Of a stretch of DNA of 32,000 nucleotides, positions 1 to 20,796 are shown piece after piece (the stretch's first letter is position 1; each line of letters starts with the position of its first letter). The stretch spans positions 630,001 through 662,000 of the forward strand of contig OY969114.1 of the NCBI GenBank assembly GCA_963698035.1, written 5' to 3'. The position numbers and the translations under genes are program-made. The notes beneath the pieces were generated by a model. The model was not told where the DNA came from. It ran no database searches and saw nothing but the letters and a program-made list of their open reading frames with translations. This stretch comes from Candidatus Saccharimonadota bacterium (lineage in GTDB: Archaea; Micrarchaeota; Micrarchaeia; Micrarchaeales; Micrarchaeaceae).

Positions 1-2469
1 GGGAGTCTGATTGAACAGCCCGTTGTACGAAGAGGCTAGCGGCCAATAATCTACCGGCGTTATCCCGTTAACCGTATTGTTCTGGTAGAGCTGCTCCATC
101 TGTCCAGTCGAAAGCGGGGCATTGTATAGTTGCACGTCTGCCATTTCACCTATGAAATTTCCATCACCGCAGTATGCTTGGCCAAGCCCTATCCCTATCC
201 CATTAGCGGTTGAGAAGCTGTTTGTGTTTATGACGGTTTGCTGCTGACCATTAAGCTGGAAAAGGTAGTTGCCAGTTGCAGGTGTCACAGACAATGCAAC
301 AAACATCCAACTGTTCAAATTGCTCGGTGTGACTGCAGGGGATGCCATTGTGTCTGCAGAGGTGCACCGATGGATAAACAAGTTCCCATTACTGCCTTGC
401 GCAGCAAGACCAAATGATTGGTAACCGGTCCAGGAGAAAAGGGATTCTACATCATTTGAACCGAAGTTAAATGCTGTGGGGTCAATCCACATCGCTATTG
501 CGAATGGATAGTTACTGCCTGAAAGGCTCGATACAGTGTTAATAATGCCATTTCCATTGAAGGAGATGCCCTGCGGCACTATCCCATTATAGAGACCTAG
601 GGCGCCGGTCTCATTTAGCACTATCCTATTGGAGACGGCAAGCGCCCTGGATCCAAGGTAGAGGTGGCTGTAGGAGCTGTTCCCGCACTGCTGCAGGTTC
701 GCGCAGTTGAGCACCCCCTTCACAGCGCTTGAGTTGTAGCCGTTCAGCAGGTTGTGGAATATCGGGTCCATCGTATAGCCCTGCAGGTTGTAGTATACTA
801 CGTTTGTAGGTGTGCCGTTGATGTTGTATCCCGAATAGTCATTCGCGTTTCCGTTCAGTGGATACCAGGCAACGAGCGTAGAGTTGAATATTGGTGGGCC
901 ATAGAGCCCACTAGTATATAGGCTCGATACCTGCGCAGGCGAGAGCGATGTGCTGTAGACTTGAACGTTTGCGATTGAACCGCTATAATAGTCCCCCGAG
1001 TCGCCCCCTATGGTGAAAACGCTATTCCCACCCAGGGTAAAACTGCCCGTACCCTCATTATTGCCATTTATATAAATGTAGGCTTTCCCCGAATTATATA
1101 CCCCAACTACCTGATACCACGTGTTTGCTGCTAAGGGTATAGTTGCGCTAAGTCTACCATGCCCGACACATCCAAAATATATGACCCCAGGACCGTCTTC
1201 TCCCGCTCCAAGCCCAGTCACGCCCGCGATATTGCAGCCACCTTCTCCGGCAATCTGTGTTATGCCGGATAGTGTAGCCAAGTTAACCCAGGCTGAAATC
1301 GTAAATTGTTGGAGTGTATTTGATATAATGACTGTGTTTGTGTTAATTTCGCTTATTCCGTTGAAGCTGGCATCCTGCCTGTTCAACAGGTTGAAAGAGA
1401 AGAGTCCGCCAGGCCCTTCCTTGGTGGTCGACTGCTGTACGTTTTGCAGGTAGTTCGGGGAGTAGTTGGATGCAAAGTAGTAGCCGTTCTGTATCGCTGT
1501 CTGCAGCGGCGTCAGGTCCAAAAGCGAGAGCGAGGCTCCATTGAGCAGCGCAATCGTCCCGTTGGGTATCACGTTCGCGGAGAGCTGGTTCGCGGTGTAG
1601 ATTAGATAGGACACAGTGACTCCGCTGGCCGGCAGCGCATTCGTCACAAGGCCTATCGCACCACAGGCCGTCAGCCCCAGGTTCGCTGCGTTAGGTGTCA
1701 CCAGTATGAAGGAATTTGCCGGCAACGTCGGCATATTGGAGCATGATGTGGGCGTCCCTCCTAGGTAAACTAGAGTGCCGTATGCGAACATGAAGGGGCT
1801 CCTACTTCCAGCTATAGCAAGAGAATTGGCTATCAGGATTGGGTAGGGATATTTAGATATGCTTTTTATCGTGCTGGGGTTGTCGCTTTCAGCGCCATAT
1901 ATGTCCTGCGTTCCGTTTATGCTCACATTCGCAACCGCCGATATTCCATAGGTAACATAGCCGTAGCTCGAGTTGAGCGTGGCGAGCCCGGTCAGCTTTG
2001 CGGTCACCACGAACGGGTTTGTCTGGTATACGCTTATGCTGAGGTTGCTCAGGGTGAGCACTCCCTGCTGCGCCCCAGGGCTGTTAAGCACCGCGCTCAC
2101 ATATTGGGCCAGTGTTGCGCCGCCCATGTAGCTCGACATGTTTGTGCCGTAAATAGTCCCGTTCGTCATCAGGCTTTCAAGCCCATACTGTGTGTTGTTC
2201 ACGAAGGTGGAGTACCTGAGGCTCGGCGTTCCCTCATAAATCGCGAGTGCATTGAGCGCATTGTTGAGGCTCGATGACAGGAACGCTGATGACCCGGAAT
2301 TAAGGAGGCTTACCAGACCCGCCGAGCTTAGGGCAGCGCTTCCGTTCGCTCCCAGCTGGTCGTAGCTTATGCCAAGCACTATATATGTTATGAGCTCCCC
2401 GAGCATCAAGACGAAGAGCACTATCATGGTAAGTGTCAGAAGAACGCCTTTCTTTGTCTTCGGTTTCAT
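1..2469 (-). CDS. Pilin-like (class III signal) surface protein with tandem LamG/ConA-like lectin modules. The 5' end is complete; the 3' end runs off the left window edge (at least 823 aa).
   Basis: Absent from the ORF track because no stop occurs before position 1. I translated the minus strand by hand from ATG 2469..2467 to position 1: 823 codons, no stop. The N-terminus is MKPKTKKG/VLLTLTMIVLFVLMLGE (basic stretch, Gly, hydrophobic helix). LamG-type modules end in IANVQVYSTSLSPAQVSSLYTSG (about 905-975) and MADVQLYNAPLSTGQMEQLYQNN (about 80-150). Each is followed by a W[WY]PL linker: AWYPLNGNANDYSG at 829-870 and DYWPL at 37-51. The start overlaps the upstream stop (ATGA at 2466-2469). 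Confidence 0.8.
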   Translation of the reverse strand, partial: MKPKTKKGVLLTLTMIVLFVLMLGELITYIVLGISYDQLGANGSAALSSAGLVSLLNSGSSAFLSSSLNNALNALAIYEGTPSLRYSTFVNNTQYGLESLMTNGTIYGTNMSSYMGGATLAQYVSAVLNSPGAQQGVLTLSNLSISVYQTNPFVVTAKLTGLATLNSSYGYVTYGISAVANVSINGTQDIYGAESDNPSTIKSISKYPYPILIANSLAIAGSRSPFMFAYGTLVYLGGTPTSCSNMPTLPANSFILVTPNAANLGLTACGAIGLVTNALPASGVTVSYLIYTANQLSANVIPNGTIALLNGASLSLLDLTPLQTAIQNGYYFASNYSPNYLQNVQQSTTKEGPGGLFSFNLLNRQDASFNGISEINTNTVIISNTLQQFTISAWVNLATLSGITQIAGEGGCNIAGVTGLGAGEDGPGVIYFGCVGHGRLSATIPLAANTWYQVVGVYNSGKAYIYINGNNEGTGSFTLGGNSVFTIGGDSGDYYSGSIANVQVYSTSLSPAQVSSLYTSGLYGPPIFNSTLVAWYPLNGNANDYSGYNINGTPTNVVYYNLQGYTMDPIFHNLLNGYNSSAVKGVLNCANLQQCGNSSYSHLYLGSRALAVSNRIVLNETGALGLYNGIVPQGISFNGNGIINTVSSLSGSNYPFAIAMWIDPTAFNFGSNDVESLFSWTGYQSFGLAAQGSNGNLFIHRCTSADTMASPAVTPSNLNSWMFVALSVTPATGNYLFQLNGQQQTVINTNSFSTANGIGIGLGQAYCGDGNFIGEMADVQLYNAPLSTGQMEQLYQNNTVNGITPVDYWPLASSYNGLFNQTP

Positions 2470-4619
2470 CTCCATATCACCACCCCGACTTTGTAGAGTT
2501 TGCTTACGTTTCTCAGGCTGAGCGGGAACGAGGCAGCGCTGACCTCGTACGAATTGATGAGCGGTATCGGGCTGAAGGGCATGCTCACATAAACCACGTT
2601 AGATGGGTAGCCAACATTGCCGAATCCGCTGTAGTCATTCGCGTCGCCGTCGAGCGGATACCACGCAATAATAGAGACCAAGCTGGTGTTCTGGACAGGC
2701 ACGGCCGCCATGCCGCCACGATACTTGCTCTCAATCTGGCTGCCGTTCAGCGCCCCATCGTATAGCTGCATGTCCGCTATCACCCCGTTAAAAGGATGCC
2801 CATTAAGACCTGTCTGCTCCCCAGCTCCTATCTGTGCAGTAACAGTGTTCGAAATAAGGCTGCCTGGCCTTGATGAGGTTCCCGCAAGGGCACCATCTAC
2901 GTAAATGCTTAATGTATTCCCATTCCATGTGCACGCCGTGTAATACCAGGTATTTGGCTGCGCGATTATACCACTGCTTGCACGTGGCTCAACTGAACCG
3001 TCTGATAATTTGACCCAGCAATTAATTTGATTTTCTACTCCCGAGGCACCACCCTCCAAACGCAAAAAGACTTGGTTGTTGTTGAATAATTCTTGAGCGA
3101 CTCCATTACTAGTAGTTGGCCTGCGTGTATTGAACCATGTACTTACTGTTAGCGCTGTTGGCCATGTTGGTTCACTGTCTAAGTTTATGTGGCTGTTCTT
3201 CCCGTTGAAGCTTGCCACTCCCAGAGACGGGGCGTAACTCCCATTTATGAATATCCCAAGGTTGCTAGACCTGTATGAGCTGTTGAGGAGCTGCGTTGCG
3301 CATCCTCCCTCCCCATTCAGGTACATCGCCCCTATCGCCTGCAGTATGCTCTCGCCGCCCGGCGCGCTGCACGTGCCGAACGCATATAGGGTGCTTCCGC
3401 CCGTCAGGTAAGCGTTGCCGTATGCGAGCGGCACGTCCTGAAAGGCGAGGTTTGTCGACGCTGGAAGCGTTATGCTCCAACGCTGCAGGTCGCTGCCGGT
3501 GATGTTGTACGAGACGAAATTTGTAAGACCGGCAACCGTGTAGAGCTGCGTCTGCGTCGTCGATGGTATCACATTGGCAGTGGCAGGTATGGAAAATTCA
3601 TTTGTTGCACAGCCACAGCTGAAGTTTATCTCCCATATAATGTTACTGAAGGTGTAGTATGCATTGCCGCCAAGTATCGAGCCGGCGCCGGTGATACTTC
3701 CGGTGGATATGGTGTCTATCCACCGGGTGCTGCCTCCAGTTGTCATTGCAAAAATCTGGTTCCCACTGCCGACCAGTATCATGTTGCCTGTTGCCGATGG
3801 GCTCACCGTAGTCCCAGTGGCGAGTGCCCTCTGCCATGCCTGCGTTATTCCTGCGCTGTTCAGCGAGAATGCATACAGGTAATTCTGGCCTGCCGTTGAG
3901 GTGCTCACAATCAACTCCCCCGAAATATAAGCCGGCACGGTAGCCTGTGCAGCAAGAGGGAGCGTCGATATAATGTTTCCATTGAGCGGGCTGGCCACTA
4001 TGACATTGCTGCCAGAGCCAAACGCGATGTAGTTATTTGCAATAGTGAGCGGTGTGCTCGCCGCCAATGAGAGCACACTCGATCTCCAGATGACGTTGCC
4101 GTTTTTCTGAATGGCTGTTAGGTAGCCTGTAGAGTTAGCATAGATTACGGACCCCTTGTAGATTATCGGGTAAAGAACGCTCCCGGATATGCCCTTGCTC
4201 AGTATCTGTTTTCCTGTGGTCGCATTCACCAGGTATATCGTGCTTCCTGTCCCAAATACCGCCATGCCGGAATCAACCGACACCGGCGTGCTTATCGGCG
4301 CCGCAGCGCTGAACTGAAAGAGGAGCATCGGCAGCATCGGTCCGCTCGCGGATGTAGCCGCAAGAGGGCCGCCTCCCGCGAAATAGGGCCAGGTTGCATA
4401 TGCTGCGCTCGAATTTACCGCGGCGACTGCATACTGCGACGCAAAGCTGGCCAGATTTGTCTGCATCAGTGTCTGCGCCACGCTGTACGCTTCCGATGTC
4501 GTAACCTGGAAACTCGCCGGCTCTGTGAAATTTGCGTAGACGAGTATCCCTACGGCCGCGGTCGCCACTATCAGTGAAAAGACCGCATCGACCGTGAATA
4601 TGAATCCCTTTATTTTCAT
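2466..4619 (-). CDS. Pilin-like (class III signal) protein with a beta-propeller-like repeat region and a C-terminal LamG/ConA-like domain.
   Basis: 717-aa ORF. The N-terminus is MKIKG/FIFTVDAVFSLIVATAAVGILV (Lys-Gly, then a hydrophobic helix). The middle roughly 330 aa consist of recurring short beta-strand/turn units (e.g. GSTIYLVNATTGKQI, GSVIYANSTGYLTAIQKNGNVIWRS, GNQIFAMTTGGSTRWI, GSTLYAFG) resembling PQQ/BamB-like propeller blades. The C-terminal module runs SFNGKNSHINLD...TWYYTACTWNGNTLSIYVDGAL...NGVIADMQLYDGALNGSQIESKY and matches the LamG pattern. It is followed by AWYPLDGDANDYSGFGN. Confidence 0.75.
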   Translation of the reverse strand: MKIKGFIFTVDAVFSLIVATAAVGILVYANFTEPASFQVTTSEAYSVAQTLMQTNLASFASQYAVAAVNSSAAYATWPYFAGGGPLAATSASGPMLPMLLFQFSAAAPISTPVSVDSGMAVFGTGSTIYLVNATTGKQILSKGISGSVLYPIIYKGSVIYANSTGYLTAIQKNGNVIWRSSVLSLAASTPLTIANNYIAFGSGSNVIVASPLNGNIISTLPLAAQATVPAYISGELIVSTSTAGQNYLYAFSLNSAGITQAWQRALATGTTVSPSATGNMILVGSGNQIFAMTTGGSTRWIDTISTGSITGAGSILGGNAYYTFSNIIWEINFSCGCATNEFSIPATANVIPSTTQTQLYTVAGLTNFVSYNITGSDLQRWSITLPASTNLAFQDVPLAYGNAYLTGGSTLYAFGTCSAPGGESILQAIGAMYLNGEGGCATQLLNSSYRSSNLGIFINGSYAPSLGVASFNGKNSHINLDSEPTWPTALTVSTWFNTRRPTTSNGVAQELFNNNQVFLRLEGGASGVENQINCWVKLSDGSVEPRASSGIIAQPNTWYYTACTWNGNTLSIYVDGALAGTSSRPGSLISNTVTAQIGAGEQTGLNGHPFNGVIADMQLYDGALNGSQIESKYRGGMAAVPVQNTSLVSIIAWYPLDGDANDYSGFGNVGYPSNVVYVSMPFSPIPLINSYEVSAASFPLSLRNVSKLYKVGVVIWR

Positions 4620-4623
4620 AGCA

Positions 4624-5187
4624 TCAACTCACTGAGCCCGTACTGCTGCTCCAGACGAACACCTCTATCTGTACAGGCGCTCCGTTAAGGAACGCGCTCC
4701 TTCTGCTTAAAAATGTTGTAACCGCGCCGTTCATAGTGGGATTCTCCCCAAGCGTAATATTAAGCGAGCTTCCAGATATGGTTATGTAATAATTGTATGT
4801 TGTTCCGAGTGCCTGTCCGGCGCCGGAGTAGTTGTAGTTCACCATAGACTGCAGGGCATAGAGCTTCGCCCCGGAGAGGCTCGAAGAGCCCGGCGAGGAG
4901 GCCAGCCCTATTCCAACACTAGTCCAAGCGCTTACCGAGTGCAGTACCACTATCGCCTGCCAGTTGGATGGGCTTCCTGCAGAGAGCAGGTTCTGCGCCA
5001 CCCCCTGCGCCTGCAGCTGCATTATGTACGAGGTGCCACCCGAAGCTATTGAGAGCTGGTTGCTCACATCGAGCCACGCTATCGACAGTATGGTTATCGC
5101 TGACATGAATATTATTATGGCGAAGATCGCGTCGAAGCTCCAGAACTGCGCCCCGAAGCCCTTCCCGATGTATCTTTGGCGGTCCAT
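4624..5187 (-). CDS. Small pilin-like protein (class III signal peptide, about 150-aa globular domain).
   Basis: 187-aa ORF with ATG at 5187. The N-terminus is MDRQRYIGKGFGAQ/FWSFDAIFAIIIFMSAITILSIAWL. It shares the F-x-[ST]-x-D-A-[VI]-F-[SA]-[LI]-I motif with the downstream gene (FTVDAVFSLIV). A 4-nt spacer separates it from both neighbours. The size and Ser/Gly/Asn-rich body are typical of archaeal pilins. Confidence 0.6.
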   Translation of the reverse strand: MDRQRYIGKGFGAQFWSFDAIFAIIIFMSAITILSIAWLDVSNQLSIASGGTSYIMQLQAQGVAQNLLSAGSPSNWQAIVVLHSVSAWTSVGIGLASSPGSSSLSGAKLYALQSMVNYNYSGAGQALGTTYNYYITISGSSLNITLGENPTMNGAVTTFLSRRSAFLNGAPVQIEVFVWSSSTGSVS

Positions 5188-5191
5188 GCAA

Positions 5192-7897
5192 TCATCCTAC
5201 CGATGCGTTTGTTATCGTAGGCGTTGGGAAACCCTGCTGGTAGAGTTGCTCTATCTGCCCGTTGGTGAGCGATGTGTTGTAGATTTGAAAGTCTACGATT
5301 GAATATGGGGGCACAGAACCACTAGGTTTGCCTATAATAAAAGATGGCGAGTTGTAAGAAAGAGTAGCTGGAATGGGCGATCCCACTCCCTGTCCGTTTA
5401 CGTAAAAATACATATCTGACCCGTTAAACGTTCCTGCAAGGAAATACCAAGCACCAGCGGAAATACCTCCAGCGCTTATCTCGTACCTAGTTCCACTATT
5501 CCAGATATTCCAATCGAAATAGCCATGGTCCAAAATCATATCGTAACAACCGCCAAAATTACACCCATCATTGACAAAGTTACCTGCCCATAAACTACTT
5601 TCATAAACCCACATTGTTAGTGTTACTGTGTTTGTTGGTTTAAGAGTGCTTACTGCAGGTAACGAAATGTAGTTGCTTACTCCGTTGAAGAGGGGGAGGA
5701 GGGTGGGGCTCTGTGCACTGGGCGAGCTAGAGTATACAACAGAGTTGTAAACTACCCCTGTGGACGTTATCGAGTACGGGCTCTGCAGTGCGGCGTAGTT
5801 GGCGCCGCTGCCTGTCATCGGCCACCATCCAACCAGCCCTTCGTTTGGCACAGGTGTCCCGATCATCCCCTCAGAATACAGCTCGCTTATCTGCGATGCC
5901 GATAGCGTTGTGTTGTATATTTGTACGTCCGAGATGTTCCCTGTCCAATAGGTGGAATAACCCGAGCCGATGGTGAGCGAATTCGATGATGAGCTGAGTG
6001 CCCCCGAGACAACGGAATTCGACGTTCCAATGAGCTTCCCATTCATGTATATTGATATCGTGTTTGTCGATGACTGGTAGGCGGCAGCGCCGAAATACCA
6101 GGTGTCTGGCGATATGGCTGTGCTTGCTTGATAGTAACTGGTGCCGCTAGAGGTGGTTAGCCTAGAACCTAAGAAGGTACTAGAGGAATATAGGTCATAA
6201 TCATCCCCTTTTCCTACAGTTATAGGCTTCGCAACGATCCTCTCGCTGCTCGTCGTGGTCGGCTCGAACCATGCAGCTATGGTTACGTTTGTCGGGCTCA
6301 GTCCAGGCGCGTTCGCAACCGAGATGGAACTGCTTGCCCCGTTGAACTGCGCCGTCAGGGTGGCGCTCTCATTCGGGAGGTAGCCATATGCGCCCTTGGT
6401 GAATGTTCCGTTGTCGCCGCTTCCGCTGTAATCATATATGGTATTAGAGTTGCCTATGTCAAGCGGCCACCAGCCCTTCAAATTGTATGTTGTCGTAAGG
6501 TTGCCGTTGAAGTATATTGATTGCGCCTGGAATCTTCCCGAAATGCCGTTAGAGACGAGCAGGGTATCCTGCAGCCCGTTGCTTCCTGTCGTTGTTGCAA
6601 TCGAGTTGTAGCTGCCGAGCAGGCCGTTCGTGCTCCAGAAGCCGAGAGGCACGCCAGAGAGGGGATACCCGCCGAAGCTGCTCACCCTCGCCTGCAAGGC
6701 TATTACCGATGTGAGCGGAGCATTGTACGGTGTGCCGGTGTTGCCTTTGCCGCTATAATCGTTGAAGTTCCCATTGAGAGGCCACCACCCAACAAGTCCG
6801 CTAACCAGATTGGTAGGAGCAGAAGAGGGGCCGTTTGAATATATGGCCGCAATCTGCTGCTGCGAGAGCGATGCGTTGTAGACCTGCACGCCAGATATGT
6901 AGCCGTTGAAGTAGGTCCCGTTCGCAGGCGCCCCACCTATGGTGAGGTTCGAAGGCCCCTCAAAACCTCCCACCGAGAAGGTGTTCGATGCGACCGGATT
7001 CCCGTTTATGTAGATTGTGGCGGTTGAGCCCGAGCTGTTGTATGTCGCTGCTATGTTGTACAAGATGTTCGTGGACAACAGGTCGGGGCTGCCCTGCAGC
7101 ATCTTGTTGCCGTCATTTGTCACAAAGGAGGGCGCCCCATAGTTTGTCACGGCGAGCATGAAAGGCTGGGACGAATGCCCAAATTCACCCACTATTGGGT
7201 TCGCCACGTTGACCTGGCCAGTGGCAGGGTACGCCTGTATGGTGCTCATGTATACCCACGCATCAAGGGTTATGCTGCTGGGCACCTTCAACGTCGGGGA
7301 ATTCGCAACTACCACGACGCTGCTGCTGCTCGCTGTAAAGTGCGGCGCGTTGATGCTAGCCTGCTGGAAGAGAGAGAGGTTCTCTGCAAGCGAAGGCAGC
7401 GAGGGCATCAGCTTGTCTATGTAGATAATGCCGCCTGCGTTTGTGATGGTCAGGTATCCAGCATATAATGGCAATACATAGAGGACTATGCCGTTAGCGC
7501 TTGAAACCGGCGTCCCATTGACTGCGAGGTTCCTGGCGCTGCTGGCCGCCTCGCCCACTATCCTCTCCTTCCCTACGGTTGTGTTGGCGAAGATCAGCCC
7601 CGTGGTCGATACCGATATATTATATGGTATGTAACCTATGCCTGCACTCAACGGTGCAATTATGGAGTAGCCACTCCCCGCCTGCAACGCCTGGTTGATG
7701 TAGCCTGCCACGCTCTGCGCTATGAGCTGCATCAGCACCGACTGCTGCTGCGCAAGCGATACCGACCTCTCATTTGCTATCACCGCGAAGACTACCACAA
7801 AAATTATGAGCACGATGGAGTACACTATCATGAATTCGAGCGCGATCTGCGATCGCGCCACCGGTCTGTCAGAATTCTTCTTCTCTCCCCCCATCAA
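5192..7897 (-). CDS. Pilin-like (class III signal, QxAxEF type) surface protein with three LamG/ConA-like lectin modules.
   Basis: 901-aa ORF starting at TTG 7897, with ATG one codon later at 7894. The N-terminus is ...DRPVARSQ/IALEFMIVYSIVLIIFVVVFAVIANE, which matches the archaeal prepilin Q-x-[SA]-x-E-[FY] pattern. Three modules lie at aa ~186-356, ~515-677 and ~733-889. Each ends in [VF]Q[VI]YN[AT]SL[ST]..QI..[IL]Y..G. Linkers are GWWPLNGNFNDYSGKGNTG (6746-6790), KGWWPLDIGNSNTIYDYSG (6422-6478) and GWWPMTGSGANY (5795-5830). Confidence 0.8.
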   Translation of the reverse strand: MMGGEKKNSDRPVARSQIALEFMIVYSIVLIIFVVVFAVIANERSVSLAQQQSVLMQLIAQSVAGYINQALQAGSGYSIIAPLSAGIGYIPYNISVSTTGLIFANTTVGKERIVGEAASSARNLAVNGTPVSSANGIVLYVLPLYAGYLTITNAGGIIYIDKLMPSLPSLAENLSLFQQASINAPHFTASSSSVVVVANSPTLKVPSSITLDAWVYMSTIQAYPATGQVNVANPIVGEFGHSSQPFMLAVTNYGAPSFVTNDGNKMLQGSPDLLSTNILYNIAATYNSSGSTATIYINGNPVASNTFSVGGFEGPSNLTIGGAPANGTYFNGYISGVQVYNASLSQQQIAAIYSNGPSSAPTNLVSGLVGWWPLNGNFNDYSGKGNTGTPYNAPLTSVIALQARVSSFGGYPLSGVPLGFWSTNGLLGSYNSIATTTGSNGLQDTLLVSNGISGRFQAQSIYFNGNLTTTYNLKGWWPLDIGNSNTIYDYSGSGDNGTFTKGAYGYLPNESATLTAQFNGASSSISVANAPGLSPTNVTIAAWFEPTTTSSERIVAKPITVGKGDDYDLYSSSTFLGSRLTTSSGTSYYQASTAISPDTWYFGAAAYQSSTNTISIYMNGKLIGTSNSVVSGALSSSSNSLTIGSGYSTYWTGNISDVQIYNTTLSASQISELYSEGMIGTPVPNEGLVGWWPMTGSGANYAALQSPYSITSTGVVYNSVVYSSSPSAQSPTLLPLFNGVSNYISLPAVSTLKPTNTVTLTMWVYESSLWAGNFVNDGCNFGGCYDMILDHGYFDWNIWNSGTRYEISAGGISAGAWYFLAGTFNGSDMYFYVNGQGVGSPIPATLSYNSPSFIIGKPSGSVPPYSIVDFQIYNTSLTNGQIEQLYQQGFPTPTITNASVG

Positions 7898-7982
7898 ACC
7901 TGATATAAATCAATCGTAATTTATTTATAATGTCCCAGCGGCCCTGTAATAGCAATAAATAGTTTGAGTACGGTATAATGGC
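7898..7982. promoter_or_regulatory. Divergent promoter region between the pilin/LamG operon and hel308.
   Basis: 85-nt AT-rich spacer. AATAAATA at 7954-7961 lies 22-29 nt upstream of the hel308 ATG (7983). TTATAAAT on the minus strand (7923-7930) lies 26-33 nt upstream of the operon start (7897/7894). The spacing fits archaeal TATA boxes driving leaderless or short-leader mRNAs. Confidence 0.45.
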
Positions 7983-11229: not shown

Positions 11230-12009
11230 CTACTGGCCTTGTATCCTCTTGAAGAGGACGAAGGCGATGCCAATAAATATGAATGCGCAGACGAAGGTCG
11301 CCAGCATGTCGACTGTTACAGAGTAGGTGGAGAAGTGGAGCAGCGCCCCCCGCATGCCATCTGTCGCGTAGAAGAGCGGGTCTATGTGCGCGAGCCCATT
11401 CAGCCATGCGGGCAGGCTTGCGCTTATTGGGAAGAGCGCGCCCGACAGGAAGAAGAGTGGCATCATAAGGAAGTTTATCAGGACCTGGAAGCTCTCTATG
11501 TTATTTATAAGCGCAGCTATTATCAGACCCATGGCCACGAATGTGGCAGACGCAAGCACCATGAAGAGCAGGGTCTCCACAATGCCCAATACGGAAATGT
11601 AGGAGAGCGGCAGTATCCCAAACACTAGCACTATGACGAGTATCAGCAACGCGGTCAGTACCGATATGGTGGAGCTGCCTGCCGTCTTCCCGAGGACTAT
11701 TGCCGCCCTGGATATCGGCGCAACGAGTATCTCCTTCAGGAAGCCGAACTGCTTGTCCCATATTACGCTCACGCCCGCGAAAATAGAGCTGAAGAGTATG
11801 GTCATGCTGATTACGCCGACCGATAGAAAGGTGAGGTAGGGTATCCCATTGCCTGCCGTCAGCGCGAATGCGGAGCCTAGGCCAACCCCGACTATAGCGA
11901 GCCAGAGGAGCGGCTGCCCGCCGCTGCCCACCATCCTTGACTTCGACTTCAGGAATCTCTTCATCTCCCTGAGCCATATTGTGTATATCGCTTCGAATGT
12001 ATTGGTCAT
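11230..12009 (-). CDS. ABC-2 type transporter permease.
   Basis: 259-aa ORF with about six hydrophobic spans. The start overlaps the stop of the upstream ATPase gene (ATGA at 12006-12009). The layout is typical of ABC-2/DrrB-like exporter permeases. Confidence 0.75.
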   Translation of the reverse strand: MTNTFEAIYTIWLREMKRFLKSKSRMVGSGGQPLLWLAIVGVGLGSAFALTAGNGIPYLTFLSVGVISMTILFSSIFAGVSVIWDKQFGFLKEILVAPISRAAIVLGKTAGSSTISVLTALLILVIVLVFGILPLSYISVLGIVETLLFMVLASATFVAMGLIIAALINNIESFQVLINFLMMPLFFLSGALFPISASLPAWLNGLAHIDPLFYATDGMRGALLHFSTYSVTVDMLATFVCAFIFIGIAFVLFKRIQGQ

Positions 12010-12992
12010 CTCCTACCACCGAACCTGGTCCGGCCGGCAGCTGAGCTGTCCGCCTCCTCCTCCCTTATCTCCCTGCCTGTAAGGCTTATGAAAACATCCT
12101 CCAGGCTTGGCCTCTTAACAGTCGCATAATCTATGGCCAGCCCCTTTGAATCAGCTATCTTCGTTATCTTCGGCAGCGCCTTCGCACCGTTCCGGGTTGT
12201 TATCTCAAGGCCATCTCTCGTCTCCTTCATCGCCTTTATGAACGGCTTCTTCTTAAGCAGCTCGTAGAGATCCTTCTTCTTCTCAACGCCGATCCTGACC
12301 ACATCCCCTCCTAGCGAGCTCTTCAGCCCCTCGGGGGTGCCGAACTTTATTATTTTCCCGTGGTCTATTATTGCCAGGCGGTCGCAGAGCAGATCCGCCT
12401 CCTCAAGGTAATGGGTCGTAAGTATTATTGTGAGCTTCTGCTCCCTGTTGAGCTTCGTTATGTAGTCCCAGATCTTTCTCCTCGTCTGAGGATCCAGCCC
12501 CAGGGTCGGCTCGTCGAGGAAGAGCACCCTTGGACGGTGTATGAATCCCCTAGCTATCTCAAGCCTCCTCTTCATTCCACCGGAGAAGGTCTTCACCTGG
12601 CTATTCGCCCTGTCCTCCAACTCCACGAGCTTCAGCACATTCTGAATTATCTCCTTCTTGTTCTTTTTCACGCCGTAGAGCCTCGCATGGAAGTCAAGGT
12701 TCTCCCGGGCTGTGAGCTCGTCGTCAAGCGAAGGGTCCTGGAAGACTATGCCTATCATCTGCCTCGCACGGTTCTTGTCCTTCAGCACGTCTATGCCGTA
12801 CACCTTTATCGAGCCCGATGTGTGGCTGAGTGTCGTGGTTATCATCGATATGGTAGTCGTCTTTCCGGCCCCGTTCGGCCCCAAAAGCCCGAATATCTCG
12901 CCTTCCTTGACCTTGAAGGAGATGCCGTCCACTGCGGTGAACTTCCCGAACCTCTTGACCAGCTTGGTAACTTCTATAGCATTTGCAACCAT
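12006..12992 (-). CDS. ABC transporter ATP-binding protein (ABC-2/DrrA-like exporter ATPase).
   Basis: 328-aa ORF. It has Walker A GPNGAGKTT, the signature FSGGMKRRL, Walker B VLFLDEPTLGLD and an H-loop TTHYLEE. Confidence 0.9.
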   Translation of the reverse strand: MVANAIEVTKLVKRFGKFTAVDGISFKVKEGEIFGLLGPNGAGKTTTISMITTTLSHTSGSIKVYGIDVLKDKNRARQMIGIVFQDPSLDDELTARENLDFHARLYGVKKNKKEIIQNVLKLVELEDRANSQVKTFSGGMKRRLEIARGFIHRPRVLFLDEPTLGLDPQTRRKIWDYITKLNREQKLTIILTTHYLEEADLLCDRLAIIDHGKIIKFGTPEGLKSSLGGDVVRIGVEKKKDLYELLKKKPFIKAMKETRDGLEITTRNGAKALPKITKIADSKGLAIDYATVKRPSLEDVFISLTGREIREEEADSSAAGRTRFGGRR

Positions 12993-14575: not shown

Positions 14576-14692
14576 TGGAGGGGGCGAGATTTGAACTCGC
14601 GGTCTCTAGATTTCTCGTCATAGCACAGGGCTCGTCACTCATAATGCTTTGCATATGAGTCTAGCGCTCTAACCAGGCTGAGCTACCCCTCC
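14576..14692 (-). tRNA. tRNA with CAU anticodon (elongator Met or Ile2) and a 42-nt intron at the canonical 37/38 position.
   Basis: Minus-strand read: GGAGGGG UA GCUC AGCCUGGUUA GAGC G CUAGA CUCAUA[intron]A UCUAG AGACC GCGAG UUCAAAU CUCGC CCCCUCC A. All four stems pair. The intron segment UAUGAGU pairs with exon ACUCAUA, forming the extended helix expected for a bulge-helix-bulge splice site. G1-C72 and a CUAGA anticodon stem exclude an initiator tRNA. Confidence 0.9.
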
Positions 14693-14736: not shown

Positions 14737-16897
<2,161 letters not shown>

Positions 16898-16998
16898 TGG
16901 GATCACCCCTCCAGAAATAGGAAAGCCGCATTATAATGTGGCGCAAACATCTTTAATAGCTTGCCGGGCGGGCATGAAGAGAATGCCAGTCATTGCGC

Positions 16999-17211
16999 TC
17001 ATTCCTCCGTCTCGTCCTCTTCGTCGTCCTCGTCGTCTTCCCAGTCTTCCTCCTCTCCATCGTCGTCCCCGTCGTCCCCCTCTCCTTCTTCAGCCAAATT
17101 CAGTATATATAGCATCGGCGTTATCATTTGCTCACATCTGCATACACGGTGGTATGCCTTTTCTCTTATTAACAGATTGGTATAAAAACCTTTCGACAAA
17201 TCTGGAGTCAA
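16999..17211 (-). CDS. Possible small protein with a 30-residue poly-acidic C-terminal tail.
   Basis: 70-aa ORF from TTG 17211, or 42 aa from ATG 17127. The tail is EEGEGDDGDDDGEEEDWEDDEDDEEDETEE (17002-17091). The tract keeps strict in-frame GAN/GGN triplet periodicity, which favours coding over a random purine tract. I recognise no family, and the N-terminal part is unconvincing. Confidence 0.3.
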   Translation of the reverse strand: MTPDLSKGFYTNLLIREKAYHRVCRCEQMITPMLYILNLAEEGEGDDGDDDGEEEDWEDDEDDEEDETEE

Positions 17212-17454
17212 CGGCGTGGCTTTGCAGAAGCAAGCCGCAGTGACAGAATTGCATTATTGCACAAAGCCGAGGTTTTGGGGCATGCGGCTGCGATGCAGCT
17301 CTGATTCCCCCCAACGACGCTAACTTTATATATTTGATGGTGGAAAATACTATATGCGTCTTTGACGCTGCGTCGCAGAGGCTATTGCTTAGTCTATGAC
17401 GGCAAAGTGAGTGCAAGCTCACTCTTAGGAAAACACACTAATCTAGATGATAAG

Positions 17455-18722
17455 ATGGCAGACAAACCACACATGAACCTGATCTTTATAGGTCACGTAG
17501 ACCACGGAAAGTCTACAACGGTAGGCAGGCTTCTATACGCAACAGGAGTAATAACTGACAGGGACATCGCAAGGTACAAAGAGGCGACCGCCCAGTTCAA
17601 CAGGCCCACATTCGAGTTCGCGTTCGTCATGGACAACCTCAAGGAGGAGAGGGAGCGCGGAATAACGATAGACATACAGCACAGGGACTTCCAGACAGCG
17701 AAGTACTACTTCACTATAATAGACGCGCCGGGCCACAGGGACTTCGTAAAGAACATGATAACGGGGGCGAGCCAGGCAGACGCTGCCGTTCTTGTGGTCA
17801 GCGCAAAGGACGGGATCCAGGCGCAGACAAGGGAGCACGCGCAGCTGATAAACGTCCTTGGTGTGCAGCAGGTCATAGTTGGTATAAACAAGATGGATGA
17901 GGTCGAATACAGCAAGCAGAAGTACGAGGAGGTGAAGAAGCAGGTCGGCGACATGCTCAAGACTATGGGATTCAAGATCGACAAGGTACCATTCATACCT
18001 TACTCTGCACAGCTTGGAGATAACATAAAGGATAAACCAGAAAAGATGGCATGGTACAACGGGCCTACGCTGCTCGCAGCGCTCGACATGCTCAAGGTGC
18101 CAGAGAAGCCGGTGGACAAGCCGTTGAGGCTTCCGATACAGGACGTGTTCAGCATATCAGGATTCGGGACCGTGCCGGTAGGCAGGGTCGAGAGCGGCGT
18201 AATGAAGGCAGGAGACCAGATAGTCATAATGCCGAGCGGCATCAAGGCCGAGGTCAAGAGCATAGAGATGCACCACCAGCAGCTGCAGAGGGCAGAGCCT
18301 GGCGACAATATCGGGTTCAACATAAAGGGCATAGAGAAGAAGGACATAAAGAGGGGAGACGTGGTAGGCCCGGTGGGCAACCCGCCAACAGTTGCGACAG
18401 AGTTCACGGCGCAGATAGTGGTGCTGCACCACCAGAACGTGATAGCAAGGGGCTACACTCCCGTATTCCACATACACACGGCGCAGATCGCATGCACATT
18501 CGAGGACATTCTAGAAAAGAAGGACCGAAGACCGGTCAGACGGTCGAGAAGAACCCGCAGACCATAAAGACAGGAGACGTCGCAATAGTCAAGATAAAGC
18601 CGACAAAGCCCGTAGCGTGCGAGAAGTTCAGCGACTTCCCGCCGCTGGGAAGGTTCGCAATAAGGGACATGGGAGAGACAATCGGGGCAGGCATCATCCT
18701 AGAAATAACCCCAAGGAAGTGA
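17455..18722 (+). pseudogene. tuf: Translation elongation factor aEF-1alpha. As sequenced, it is interrupted by a 1-nt deletion-type frameshift near 18525.
   Basis: The true start is [21 protein letters not shown] at ATG 17455; the track start at 17362 is upstream read-through. G motifs are [16 protein letters not shown] and NKMD. The frame is lost after ...FEDILEKKD (GAC ending at 18525). The conserved C-terminus [29 protein letters not shown]...GRFAIRDMGETIGAGIILEI continues in the -1 frame (track ORF 18051..18722). A third C in the CC run at 18525-18526 restores a 422-aa protein. Confidence 0.85.
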
Positions 18723-19038: not shown

Positions 19039-20796
19039 TCATCTCGCATTCTTTTTTATCTCTGATATGGTCTTTAGGAGGTCCACCTCCTCGTCGTTTA
19101 TCAGCTTTTCGAACTCCCCTCTAAGAAGCCGCTCGTCCTCGTCGGTCACCCTAGTATAGAGCGCTTGCCCTTCCCTTACCTGGCGGCCGAATGTAGGCTC
19201 GTCCATCGATATCGCGACGTTGTCTCCCTTTTTCGCCATCTCCAATGGCGCCTTCTCGGTCTGTATTCCCTTTATTTTGCCGATTACCTCTCCGATATCG
19301 TTCATGAGTAGGCATCCAACCTTCACCCTGCCGGCAAGCACGCTTATCCCGAATATCGCGGGGTGCGACACCCTGAAGCAGCTGTTCGGGAGGACCTCAA
19401 TCTTACCGGGGAAGATTATCCTGCCCTCCGCCTTGCTGATCGTGCTCTTCTGCCTCTGCTCCACGAAGAGCTTGTAGTCGTCAAGCAGCTTGTATATTAT
19501 GTCCCCGCCGATTATCTGTATGCCGCTGTCGAAGGAAGCCTCCGAAGCGTCGTTCGCCACCTGTACATTGAACTCCAGCACCACCGCGTATGTGGGATTA
19601 ACGGCAAGCTGCGAGAACGCATCCACCACGTCCCGCTTTGTCACGTCGCCCAATCCCTTCTTGCTTATCGTAAATCCCGCAGCCTCCATAAGCCTCGATA
19701 TCGCTTCGAGGCTGCCAATAGAATCCGCTTTGAGGACAACCCCCGTCCTGTCGGTTCTGAAGACCTCTCCGATCTCTGCGGTTATCTGCGTTGAATAACT
19801 GCCATCCTCGGTTACCTGCACAACCGGCAATCCAGGCATCGCATCCTCGAGACCGTTCCCGCTTATCTTAACCCCGCAGGACGCGCTCACCTCGTCCACA
19901 TAGGTGAACTTGCTGGTGCTATCCCTTATCTCCTGCAGGGGCTTTGCCTTGAGCAGCGCCTTTATCTTCGCGGTCGCTATGCCCGTTGGCGTTGCAAATG
20001 CTATGGTGTCATTCGTCTTCAGCATCCCGTCGTAGAGTATGACGTCTATTGTGGTCCCGAGCCCCCTGACCTCCTTCTTCTCCAGTATGCTGCCCCTTCC
20101 GGGTCCGCTCACTTCTATGTTGAGCCGCATCTCAAGATATCTCTGCGAGAGGCCTGTCGCCACCATCAGCAGCTCAGCGATCCCCTCGCCGGTCTTGGCG
20201 CTTAGCGGTACTATCGCAATCTCCCTCTGGAAGTTCCTCACCCTGTCGAACCTCTCGGCGTTGAACCCAAGTTCGCTAAGCTTGCCTATAAACTCGAAAA
20301 CGCTATTCTCAAGTGCAGCCGCCACGCCCTGGTTCTGCTTGGAGAGCGCCTCTAGGAAGCTCTTCGACTTCGTGTTGAGCCATCCAGTTATCAGGTCTAT
20401 CTTGTTAGCTGCGATTATGAACGGCGTCTTGTACTCCTTAAGTATCGCAATCGATTCAATCGTCTGCGGCTCGAATCCCTTCGTTATGTCAACAACGAGT
20501 ATCGCCAGGTCTGCGACGCTGCCGCCCCTCTTTCTGAGGTTGGTGAAAGCCTCGTGCCCTGGCGTGTCTATGAAAAGAAGGCCTGGAATGGTTATGTTGG
20601 TGCCCGTCGCATGCAGCATGGGCCCGCAGATTCTCTCTACCGTATCTATCGGAACCTCGCTGGCGCCGATATGCTGGGTGATGCCTCCGACCTCGCGCGC
20701 AGCTATGGCACTGTTGCGTATCCTGTCAAGTAGCGAGGTCTTGCCGTGGTCTACATGACCCATAACCACTATTATAGGCTGCCTTATCATCTCCAT
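19039..20796 (-). CDS. infB: Translation initiation factor aIF5B (IF-2 family GTPase).
   Basis: The track ORF is 19039..20799 (GTG); an ATG lies at 20796. It has RQPIIVVMGHVDHGKTSLLD, DTPGHEAF and NKID G-motifs. The roughly 585-aa length is typical of aIF5B. Confidence 0.9.
   Translation of the reverse strand: MEMIRQPIIVVMGHVDHGKTSLLDRIRNSAIAAREVGGITQHIGASEVPIDTVERICGPMLHATGTNITIPGLLFIDTPGHEAFTNLRKRGGSVADLAILVVDITKGFEPQTIESIAILKEYKTPFIIAANKIDLITGWLNTKSKSFLEALSKQNQGVAAALENSVFEFIGKLSELGFNAERFDRVRNFQREIAIVPLSAKTGEGIAELLMVATGLSQRYLEMRLNIEVSGPGRGSILEKKEVRGLGTTIDVILYDGMLKTNDTIAFATPTGIATAKIKALLKAKPLQEIRDSTSKFTYVDEVSASCGVKISGNGLEDAMPGLPVVQVTEDGSYSTQITAEIGEVFRTDRTGVVLKADSIGSLEAISRLMEAAGFTISKKGLGDVTKRDVVDAFSQLAVNPTYAVVLEFNVQVANDASEASFDSGIQIIGGDIIYKLLDDYKLFVEQRQKSTISKAEGRIIFPGKIEVLPNSCFRVSHPAIFGISVLAGRVKVGCLLMNDIGEVIGKIKGIQTEKAPLEMAKKGDNVAISMDEPTFGRQVREGQALYTRVTDEDERLLRGEFEKLINDEEVDLLKTISEIKKNAR

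Follow-up and report, generated by a model that had tools for sequence, protein, structure and literature searches.

A conserved four-gene cassette of pilin-like proteins with LamG and beta-propeller domains as a candidate minor-pilin/adhesin set of Micrarchaeota

The means by which DPANN episymbionts locate a host and stay attached to it have yet to be settled; cryo-electron tomography (cryo-ET) has shown filaments and nanotubes, with no proteins named. Here, we describe four genes, A, B, C, and D, from a Micrarchaeota (DPANN) archaeon. They lie tightly packed on the minus strand within positions 1 to 7897 of a 32,000-nucleotide (nt) stretch of contig OY969114.1 (positions 630,001 to 662,000), which we call the window and to which all unlabeled coordinates refer. 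The genes were located through an open reading frame (ORF) listing with translations. An earlier interpretation made from the letters alone, the sequence-only reading, proposed a pilus-tip or cell-cell adhesion module and guessed at a small-genome episymbiotic archaeon as its owner, a guess borne out by the assignment to Micrarchaeota. Our preferred reading, with a probability of roughly 0.62, is that A to D are the locus-encoded minor-pilin/adhesin set of an archaeal type IV pilus (T4P)-like system conserved throughout Micrarchaeota. We infer that they are located at the pilus tip and bind the host.

Each of the four proteins begins with a short basic N-terminus, a [KR][GAS] motif, and about 20 hydrophobic residues, with Gly-Ala at positions −2/−1 in B of the window. 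Gene A (5192 to 7894, minus) encodes 900 amino acids (aa) from its ATG, with the class III-like N-terminus ..VARS/QIALEFMIVYS.. (the slash marks the predicted cleavage site), a pilin-like domain of about 115 aa, and three LamG modules. Gene B (4624 to 5187, minus) encodes a pilin-sized protein of 187 aa that begins ..GKGFGA/QFWSFDAIFAIIIF.. and has no Pfam domain. Gene C (2466 to 4619, minus; 717 aa) has the class III-like N-terminus MKIKG/FIFTVDAVFSLIV, followed by an eight-bladed propeller, a helical linker, one LamG module, and a C-terminal beta segment. Gene D (1 to 2475, minus), which is cut by the window edge, encodes at least 825 aa with the class III-like N-terminus MEMKPKTKKG/VLLTLTMIVLFVLMLGE, a region of about 340 aa matching no family, and then two LamG modules.

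These N-termini were all noticed in the sequence-only reading, and we found that they are conserved. The motifs are kept in 66 to 72 orthologues per family: [KR][AGS]/QIALEF[LMI]IVYS in A, [KR][AG]/QFWSFDxIFA in B, [KR][GA]/F[IV]FTxDAxFAL in C, and [KR]G/[IVL]L[LF]TL...LMLGE in D. The motif of A reads as the euryarchaeal Q+1 ... E+5 pattern. Conservation in each family peaks over the first 25 mature residues, where the majority fraction is 0.68 to 0.78, versus 0.33 to 0.57 further on. The cleavage of B had been placed after the Gln; we predict that a cut before it is more likely, because the family consensus has a basic and a small residue directly before the Gln. We also scanned the whole 32-kb window in six frames for [KR][GAS] motifs that lead into a stretch of 22 uncharged, mainly hydrophobic residues and lie no more than 35 codons from a start codon. 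The scan returned genes A to D plus two matches inside other ORFs. Among the four, D alone would strictly fit what we take to be the FlaFind pattern.

The N-terminal helices are also related to one another. HHalign identifies those of B and C as homologues (92%, E = 6.7e-7), and families A and B are weakly related over the helix (HHalign, E = 2.6e-4). A sublineage made up of loci L057, L067, L068, L074, L076, L077, L080, and L081 provides a further comparison. There, A and B both start with M[KR]L/Q, a three-residue leader with Leu at −1, whereas C keeps Gly or Ala at that position. This joint switch in A and B points to a shared processing peptidase of changed specificity and is what would be predicted if one processing enzyme serves both proteins. 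Additional proteins of 169 to 953 aa with canonical Q[ST][AS][IV]E[FY] class III N-termini adjoin the cassette in some Micrarchaeota (L006, L017, and L018 at about 2150 to 3050; L013 at 11625 to 12555; L020 at 15705 to 16695; L037 at 15763 to 18622; and L062 at 6676 to 7183), and none of this type is present in the window. They may be further pilins or adhesins.

To follow the cassette through other genomes, we used B, its only domain-free member, as the signature gene. B has 19 close relatives among 5.8 billion clusters, and a scan with the B alignment of one genome per GTDB species found 124 genomes, of which we examined the cassette loci of 80. We found the A-B-C-D cassette in at least 80 species-level genomes, and almost all of the 80 loci are labeled Micrarchaeota, Micrarchaeia, or Micrarchaeaceae. 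It is present in the complete genome of the cultured "Ca. Micrarchaeum sp." A_DKE (locus L056, NZ_CP060530.1, about 419.4 to 428.0 kb). Six records, L013, L018, L031, L042 (labeled Marsarchaeota), L046 (Acidiferrales bacterium), and L047 (Methanothrix), carry the Micrarchaeota cassette, and L018 and L046 additionally show its typical Hel308 flank; these contigs are probably misbinned or mislabeled.

A BLAST-based synteny survey of 82 loci showed all four genes labeled in A-B-C-D order in 54 of them. D was complete in 60 loci, and in 54 of these 60 it was directly followed, on the opposite strand, by a convergent block of five genes: T2SSF (about 330 aa), a second T2SSF (310 to 450 aa), a gene that we call X (about 190 to 270 aa), a T2SSE ATPase (about 500 to 545 aa), and a coiled-coil protein. 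Pfam annotation of two related loci confirmed the two T2SSF genes and the T2SSE gene. The ATPase best matches FlaI in NCBIfam (E = 6e-77, 259 bits against a cutoff of 550); it also matches the bindosome protein BasE (E = 5e-42, 144 bits against a cutoff of 1000), and the platform genes match UpsF and ArlJ weakly. An ATPase of the FlaI/T2SSE type and two TadC/T2SSF genes, counterparts of the machinery that the sequence-only reading had proposed to look for in the genome, adjoin D convergently in homologous loci. In relatives, the pilus machinery that is "missing" from the window lies just past where the window's left edge falls. On the other side, Hel308 is upstream of the cassette in 30 loci, as it is in the window. 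The sizes of the large proteins vary among species, from 721 to 1318 aa for full-length copies of A, from 375 to 933 aa for C (some copies of which are without the propeller), and from 412 to 1547 aa for D; B is stable at 174 to 217 aa. Two further genes of the block are conserved: X, between the ATPase and TadC genes, is acidic and Gln/Glu-rich, and the coiled-coil gene upstream of the ATPase encodes 430 to 480 aa with weak SMC-like matches; neither gene could be assigned to a family. Examples in L003 lie at 17599 to 18288 and 19842 to 20567.

We next consider whether the proteins resemble pilins beyond the N-terminal helix. The AlphaFold2 (AF2) model of B (predicted local distance difference test score [pLDDT], 81.9) has a 56-residue N-terminal helix (residues 12 to 67) and then an alpha/beta head with a four-stranded sheet, so that the modeled protein has a pilin-like "lollipop" layout. 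A B profile run against PDB sequences found nothing (best E = 0.48). A profile search of 1.84 billion representatives returned 690 relatives of B at E ≤ 1e-3. Weak matches to DUF7287 were seen in 24 of the 106 distant relatives scanned, and a few distant relatives weakly matched the minor pilins ComGE or ComGG; these matches are suggestive only.

Two distant relatives of B had a readable context, and both were in T4P-like loci with two T2SSF genes and one T2SSE gene. The T4P-like locus L089 (GCA_053533215.1, 7829 to 17009) also has KaiC-like and MinD-like ATPase genes and contains five consecutive class III genes, the first for a protein of 594 aa (KRG/QGATEL). The other four encode proteins of 132 aa (RRA/QISVDF), 162 aa (KKG/QLFSLD), 131 aa (RKG/LFFSLDA), and 278 aa (RKG/FIFTV), which mirror A, B, C, and D, respectively, in gene order and motif. 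A profile of the N-terminal 195 residues of 66 Micrarchaeota A proteins matched the 132-aa protein with an E value of 3.8e-16 over profile positions 1 to 115, and the B profile matched the 162-aa protein with an E value of 2.5e-15. The matching part of A is its mature N-terminal pilin-like domain, the alpha-1 helix plus head (7505 to 7849, minus), which is homologous to the free-standing 132-aa protein. Because the first 115 or so mature residues match a free-standing protein, the Micrarchaeota A giant, at least, appears to be a pilin-sized protein that acquired a C-terminal LamG array. This match supports the earlier proposal that adhesin domains are fused directly to pilin anchors. The locus holding P0062 likewise has small class III proteins (176, 154, 213, 172, and 690 aa) in an A-B-C-D-like order, together with T2SSE and two T2SSF genes.

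Beyond these N-termini, the large proteins carry LamG modules and, in C, a propeller. Pfam Laminin_G_3 (PF13385) matched A (E = 9.8e-57, 191.8 bits, three stretches), C (E = 9e-23, 81.5 bits), and D (E = 1.5e-28, 100.3 bits, two stretches), and PQQ_2 matched C (E = 9.2e-11, 42.3 bits). The gathering cutoff is 27.6 bits for each of the two families, so the LamG and PQQ-like profile matches that had been expected score above it. An in-house LamG profile built from the window's own modules resolved six modules in the visible sequence, three in A, one in C, and two in D, all on the minus strand (residues of A are numbered from the TTG start at 7897 and those of D from the Met at 2469). In A, they are at 6782 to 7297 (aa 201 to 372; profile E = 1.6e-69; best Pfam stretch, aa 194 to 350), 5822 to 6334 (aa 522 to 692; 6.6e-70), and 5201 to 5668 (aa 744 to 899; 2.4e-38). 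The module of C is at 2670 to 3230 (aa 464 to 650; 3.7e-71), and those of D are at 862 to 1359 (aa 371 to 536; 3.2e-65) and 73 to 516 (aa 652 to 799; 4.9e-32). An eight-bladed PQQ/BamB-like beta-propeller occupies 3360 to 4337 (minus; about aa 95 to 420) of C. Thus, the tally of at least six LamG modules plus one propeller given in the sequence-only reading is the exact count for the visible part, as judged by Pfam, the in-house profile, and AF2 with Foldseek.

The AF2 model of C, made with a 20-sequence alignment (pLDDT, 76.9; predicted TM-score, 0.79), shows an N-terminal helix of low confidence, about 32 strands in residues 98 to 415, a helical linker, a jelly-roll, and a C-terminal beta segment. 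Foldseek matched the propeller to eight-bladed BamB, YxaL, and the Tako8/Cake designs, with E values of 1e-13 to 1e-15 and target-normalized TM-scores of 0.7 to 0.83 (0.75 to 0.83 for BamB and Tako8). We rejected a PilY1-like identity for this propeller; PilY1 is absent from the top 50 Foldseek matches, and there is no Pfam Neisseria_PilC match. A weak Pilin_GH match in D (E = 0.047) and TafC matches to the LamG part only were discarded as uninformative. B and the N-terminal regions of A and D matched no family in Pfam and NCBIfam.

The composition of the four proteins sets them apart from their neighbors. A to D contain 2 to 3% Lys plus Arg, 3 to 4% Asp plus Glu, about 40% Ser, Thr, Asn, and Gly, and 1.1 to 2.1 N-glycosylation sequons per 100 residues, compared with 12 to 16% Lys plus Arg and 0 to 0.8 sequons per 100 residues in six cytoplasmic proteins of the same window. 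We take such a charge-poor, sequon-rich makeup to be that of extracellular, exposed proteins, possibly of an acid-dwelling organism. Elsewhere in the window, a 994-aa NosD/right-handed beta-helix protein (26562 to 29546, plus) has a charge-poor composition like that of A to D, 28 Cys residues, and 3.9 sequons per 100 aa. Its first 60 or so residues are Pro-rich and precede a transmembrane anchor; our scan found no [KR][GAS] class III motif in it, and it is probably another surface protein.

The genes are closely spaced. Gaps of 4 nt separate A from B (TGA ttgc ATG) and B from C (TGA tgct ATG), as had been claimed. A could start at a TTG at 7897, giving 901 aa, or at the ATG three bases downstream, giving the 900 aa of an independent gene call. 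C and D overlap (junction sequence, ggggtggtgatATGGAGATGAaa) whichever start of D is taken. D most likely starts at the ATG at 2475 (MEMKPK...), with a 10-nt overlap, because its orthologues begin with a conserved M-[EA]-[ML]-K and the independent gene call in L001 places it there too. Translational coupling by an ATGA overlap had been described for this junction; the overlap stands, and its ATGA form, which would begin at 2469, is less likely. The operon had also been said to continue beyond the left edge of the window. The D orthologue in L003, the closest full-length relative, is 855 to 857 aa long, so that the D of the window appears to be short of about 35 codons and the operon appears to end with D; the claim holds for those codons and for nothing further. 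Upstream of A, an A+T-rich divergent intergenic region of 85 nt (7898 to 7982, minus), read from the sequence, separates A from the Hel308 helicase gene. It contains the TATA-like elements TTATAAATAA (7921 to 7930) and ATTTATATCA (7901 to 7910) and is the presumed promoter of the four-gene operon, whose mRNA would be leaderless or have a short leader.

If A to D are minor pilins with adhesin domains, they might work as follows. The leader would be removed at [KR][GAS]/ by a prepilin peptidase of the membrane, presumably an A24 peptidase, whose gene would lie in another part of the genome; the related organism "Ca. Mancarchaeum acidiphilum" Mia14 has one (PMC5498576). The four hydrophobic alpha-1 helices would form a small packed complex on the platform of TadC and ATPase, and this complex would prime, and then cap or decorate, a filament of a small major pilin. 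We take this pilin to be encoded elsewhere, the common situation in archaeal systems of this type (PMC4858521). Held out from the cell in this way, the LamG arrays and the propeller would bind glycans or other surface molecules of the host, which for known Micrarchaeota is a wall-less Thermoplasmatales archaeon. Species-to-species variation in the number and kind of appended modules would tune specificity.

A more ambitious form of this proposal, which we put forward only tentatively and consider rather doubtful, is that A to D are a four-subunit complex that both initiates and caps the pilus, with lectin modules built into the pilins, and that the pilus is the primary host-recognition organelle, with module turnover encoding host range. 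If this were true, DPANN archaea would have in this complex their first device for host attachment to be defined in molecular terms. It would also be an archaeal solution, with the adhesin fused to the minor pilin, distinct from the bacterial one of minor pilins and a separate PilY1. The cassette in any case supplies four concrete, testable candidates for host attachment by DPANN archaea, including in the cultivated A_DKE. It further suggests a route of modular evolution in which the small minor pilins of an ancestral four-gene cassette gained lectin arrays and a propeller in one phylum.

Several observations weigh against A to D being the minor-pilin/adhesin set of a pilus. The Pfam model for class III signals (PF04021), which the sequence-only reading had expected to match, does not match A to D at E ≤ 0.1, and the residue at −2 of B in the window is Gly, not Lys or Arg. 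Foldseek linked no solved pilin to the B model at E < 0.01; the best match (E = 0.013), itself weak, was the alpha/beta domain of ribosomal protein uS3, an outcome that speaks neither for nor against a pilin fold. C matches the 131-aa protein of L089 over the helix only (6.4e-4), and D has no significant match to the 278-aa protein. Domain searches of the window found no pilus ATPase, platform protein, or prepilin peptidase, just as first stated; there is also no prepilin peptidase among the Pfam-annotated genes of the annotated related loci, including L089, and the six-frame class III scan gave no major pilin candidate in the window. The failure of the Pfam signal model and of Foldseek to find a pilin would be expected if A to D were ordinary Sec-dependent, N-terminally anchored surface or S-layer-associated lectins or glycoside hydrolase-like proteins whose proximity to pilus genes is fortuitous, and LamG proteins are indeed abundant in DPANN genomes, where they are usually annotated as Sec-secreted (PMC9563170). 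However, the cassette and the convergent T2SSE/T2SSF block occur together in 54 of 60 informative species-level loci. The hydrophobic N-terminus is also the best-conserved part of each family and has fixed polar positions (Q+1, E+5 or D+6), pilin-sized homologues of A and B hold the same positions in distant T4P loci, and no catalytic glycosidase family was detected in A to D with Pfam and NCBIfam. Given the synteny, this explanation is the least likely of the rivals, and we consider it highly improbable.

The two other explanations accept the machinery and differ in what it does. The ATPase/TadC machine might build no long pilus and instead insert A to D into a short pseudopilus or surface raft, like the Bas system (the bindosome) of Sulfolobus, to form a lectin-studded host-contact patch. 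Class III signals on nonpilin surface proteins are established for Sulfolobus. The Bas system resembles the present one in having such signals on large, nonfilament surface proteins and a dedicated FlaI/TadC-type pair; moreover, no major pilin gene was found in the cassette or the window, A, C, and D are far larger than filament subunits, and the ATPase does match BasE (5e-42). That match, however, is far below its cutoff (144 versus 1000 bits) and below the match to FlaI (259 bits), and the Bas cargo consists of ABC-transporter sugar-binding proteins, not LamG and propeller proteins. In archaeal T4P systems, the genes for major pilins usually stand alone at other sites of the genome (PMC4858521), Micrarchaeum cells bear thin filaments (PMC11329633), and some related loci have further pilin-like genes, with the canonical Q[ST][AS][IV]E[FY] N-terminus, beside the cassette. 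We consider this bindosome-like arrangement unlikely. A DNA-uptake pilus, the counterpart of the Epd pilus of Methanococcus maripaludis, seems more unlikely still. Such a pilus would mainly import DNA or nucleotides for a cell unable to make them, and the LamG proteins would serve pilus biogenesis and not host recognition. Pilus-mediated DNA import has been proposed for DPANN archaea (PMC9563170), and the two systems share an architecture of an ATPase, two TadC genes, and a large ConA-like protein. Transposon insertions in epdA, epdC, epdF, epdH, epdI, epdJKL, eppA, and the DUF2341 gene of the epd locus led to transformation defects in a transposon screen (PMC10133366). However, no DNA-binding domain was detected in A to D with Pfam and NCBIfam, and six lectin-type modules plus a propeller, variable between species, fit ligand recognition better; uptake and attachment roles are also not mutually exclusive.

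The minor-pilin/adhesin reading can also be compared with described systems, since this kind of system is known from comparative genomics and partly from Methanococcus genetics. The remark in the sequence-only reading that no system of this architecture had been characterized was overstated in view of a tip-adhesin model (PMC4858521), a link between LamG and T4P loci (PMC5498576), and a DUF2341 phenotype (PMC10133366). In the model of Makarova et al. 2016 (PMC4858521), clade-1 T4P, found in Methanococci, Methanothermobacteria, and Thermococci, comprise an ATPase, two TadC genes, at least five minor pilins, stand-alone major pilins, and two large DUF2341 (ConA-like) proteins that are modeled as PilY1-like tip adhesins; DPANN genomes and LamG are not mentioned there. 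The Micrarchaeota loci are similar in their ATPase, two TadC-like platform genes (T2SSF of 330 aa and 380 to 422 aa), and several locus-encoded class III proteins. Their large proteins are also of the ConA clan but have Laminin_G_3 arrays and a PQQ-type propeller, with DUF2341 (PF10102) seen only as a faint match in one D orthologue, and neither an EppA peptidase nor a FleN/MinD ATPase was seen in the two annotated Micrarchaeota loci. The secretion ATPase of clade 1 is arCOG01819; NCBIfam identifies the ATPase of our loci only as FlaI-like, and for the presumably orthologous Mia14 locus the assignment is that of PMC5498576. We rejected the presence of two TadC genes as a ground for assignment to clade 1; it is nondiscriminating, as two TadC genes occur in clade 2 too.

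The nearest described locus comes from the same phylum. Golyshina et al. 2017 (PMC5498576) reported a T4P locus of eight consecutive genes, MIA14_0170 to MIA14_0177, in Mia14, along with an expansion of LamG genes, some of them linked to T4P loci, and one FlaK-like peptidase, MIA14_0570. The eight genes fit, one for one, the order ATPase - X - TadC - TadC - D - C - B - A. We infer from gene order only, Mia14 not being among the 80 loci, that this locus is orthologous to the cassette plus its machinery. In that paper, the large LamG proteins are not annotated as pilin-like, and the four-gene cassette, its phylum-wide conservation, and experiments are all absent. The only experimentally studied system of this general layout is that of the Epd pili of M. 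maripaludis (EpdA to EpdE, EppA, the EpdJ/K platform, the EpdL ATPase, and a DUF2341 protein). Several of its minor pilins are essential for piliation, and its platform is split into two TadC-like proteins (PMC4858521). It resembles our loci in layout, including a large ConA-like protein encoded in the pilin locus (PMC4858521, PMC10133366). No fusion of the minor pilins of Epd to lectin arrays is reported, and Epd pili are known for attaching to surfaces and taking up DNA, in a methanogen that is free-living and not an episymbiont. Cryo-ET of Micrarchaeum cells showed thin filaments "that could represent archaeal pili" (PMC11329633). Makarova et al. 2019 described T4P "dark matter" islands in DPANN genomes, whose unknown signal-bearing proteins were predicted to be pilins, and Krause et al. 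2022, who described the A_DKE coculture, do not mention pili or LamG.

A wider parallel exists in bacteria. FimU-PilVWX with PilY1 of bacterial type IVa pili and GspH-I-J-K of type II secretion systems are sets of about four cotranscribed pilin-like proteins that prime assembly and are located at the filament tip. To our knowledge, none of the large proteins of the clade-1, Mia14, and epd systems has been studied structurally or biochemically. The bacterial complexes share with the cassette four pilin-like proteins plus a large beta-propeller adhesin, nonpilin or fused to a pilin (PilY1), and they serve here as a working analogy for the mechanism, as they also do in PMC4858521; A to D have no Pfam match above noise to PilY1/Neisseria_PilC or to bacterial minor-pilin families. 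That archaeal T4P loci can encode large ConA-like adhesins has been published before, and the value of the present analysis is in the specific candidates and the comparative picture. The analysis adds that the cassette is a unit found across the phylum, that the LamG giants have explicit pilin-type N-termini, that small-pilin cassettes elsewhere are related to it, and that a cultivated strain carries it.

The remainder of the window is archaeal housekeeping. It encodes Hel308, an ABC-2 transporter, cysteinyl-tRNA synthetase (CysRS), aEF1A, S10, aIF5B, nucleoside diphosphate kinase, a DEAD helicase, a carbamate kinase-like protein, ornithine carbamoyltransferase, DNA ligase, tRNA-Thr, and an intron-containing tRNA. 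A gene for a Cdc48/VCP-type AAA ATPase (14737 to 16906, minus) is split into at least four ORFs, with CDC48_N at 16906 to 16502, AAA D1 at 16305 to 15670, the first half of D2 at 15637 to 15020, and the end of D2 plus the lid at 15183 to 14737; the local G+C content is raised, at 0.56 to 0.58. The broken reading frame indicates either a pseudogene or assembly indel errors. Directly downstream of the CysRS gene, Rfam matched a tRNA of 117 nt (14576 to 14692, minus; 61.6 bits) that ARAGORN did not report and that is probably an intron-containing archaeal tRNA.

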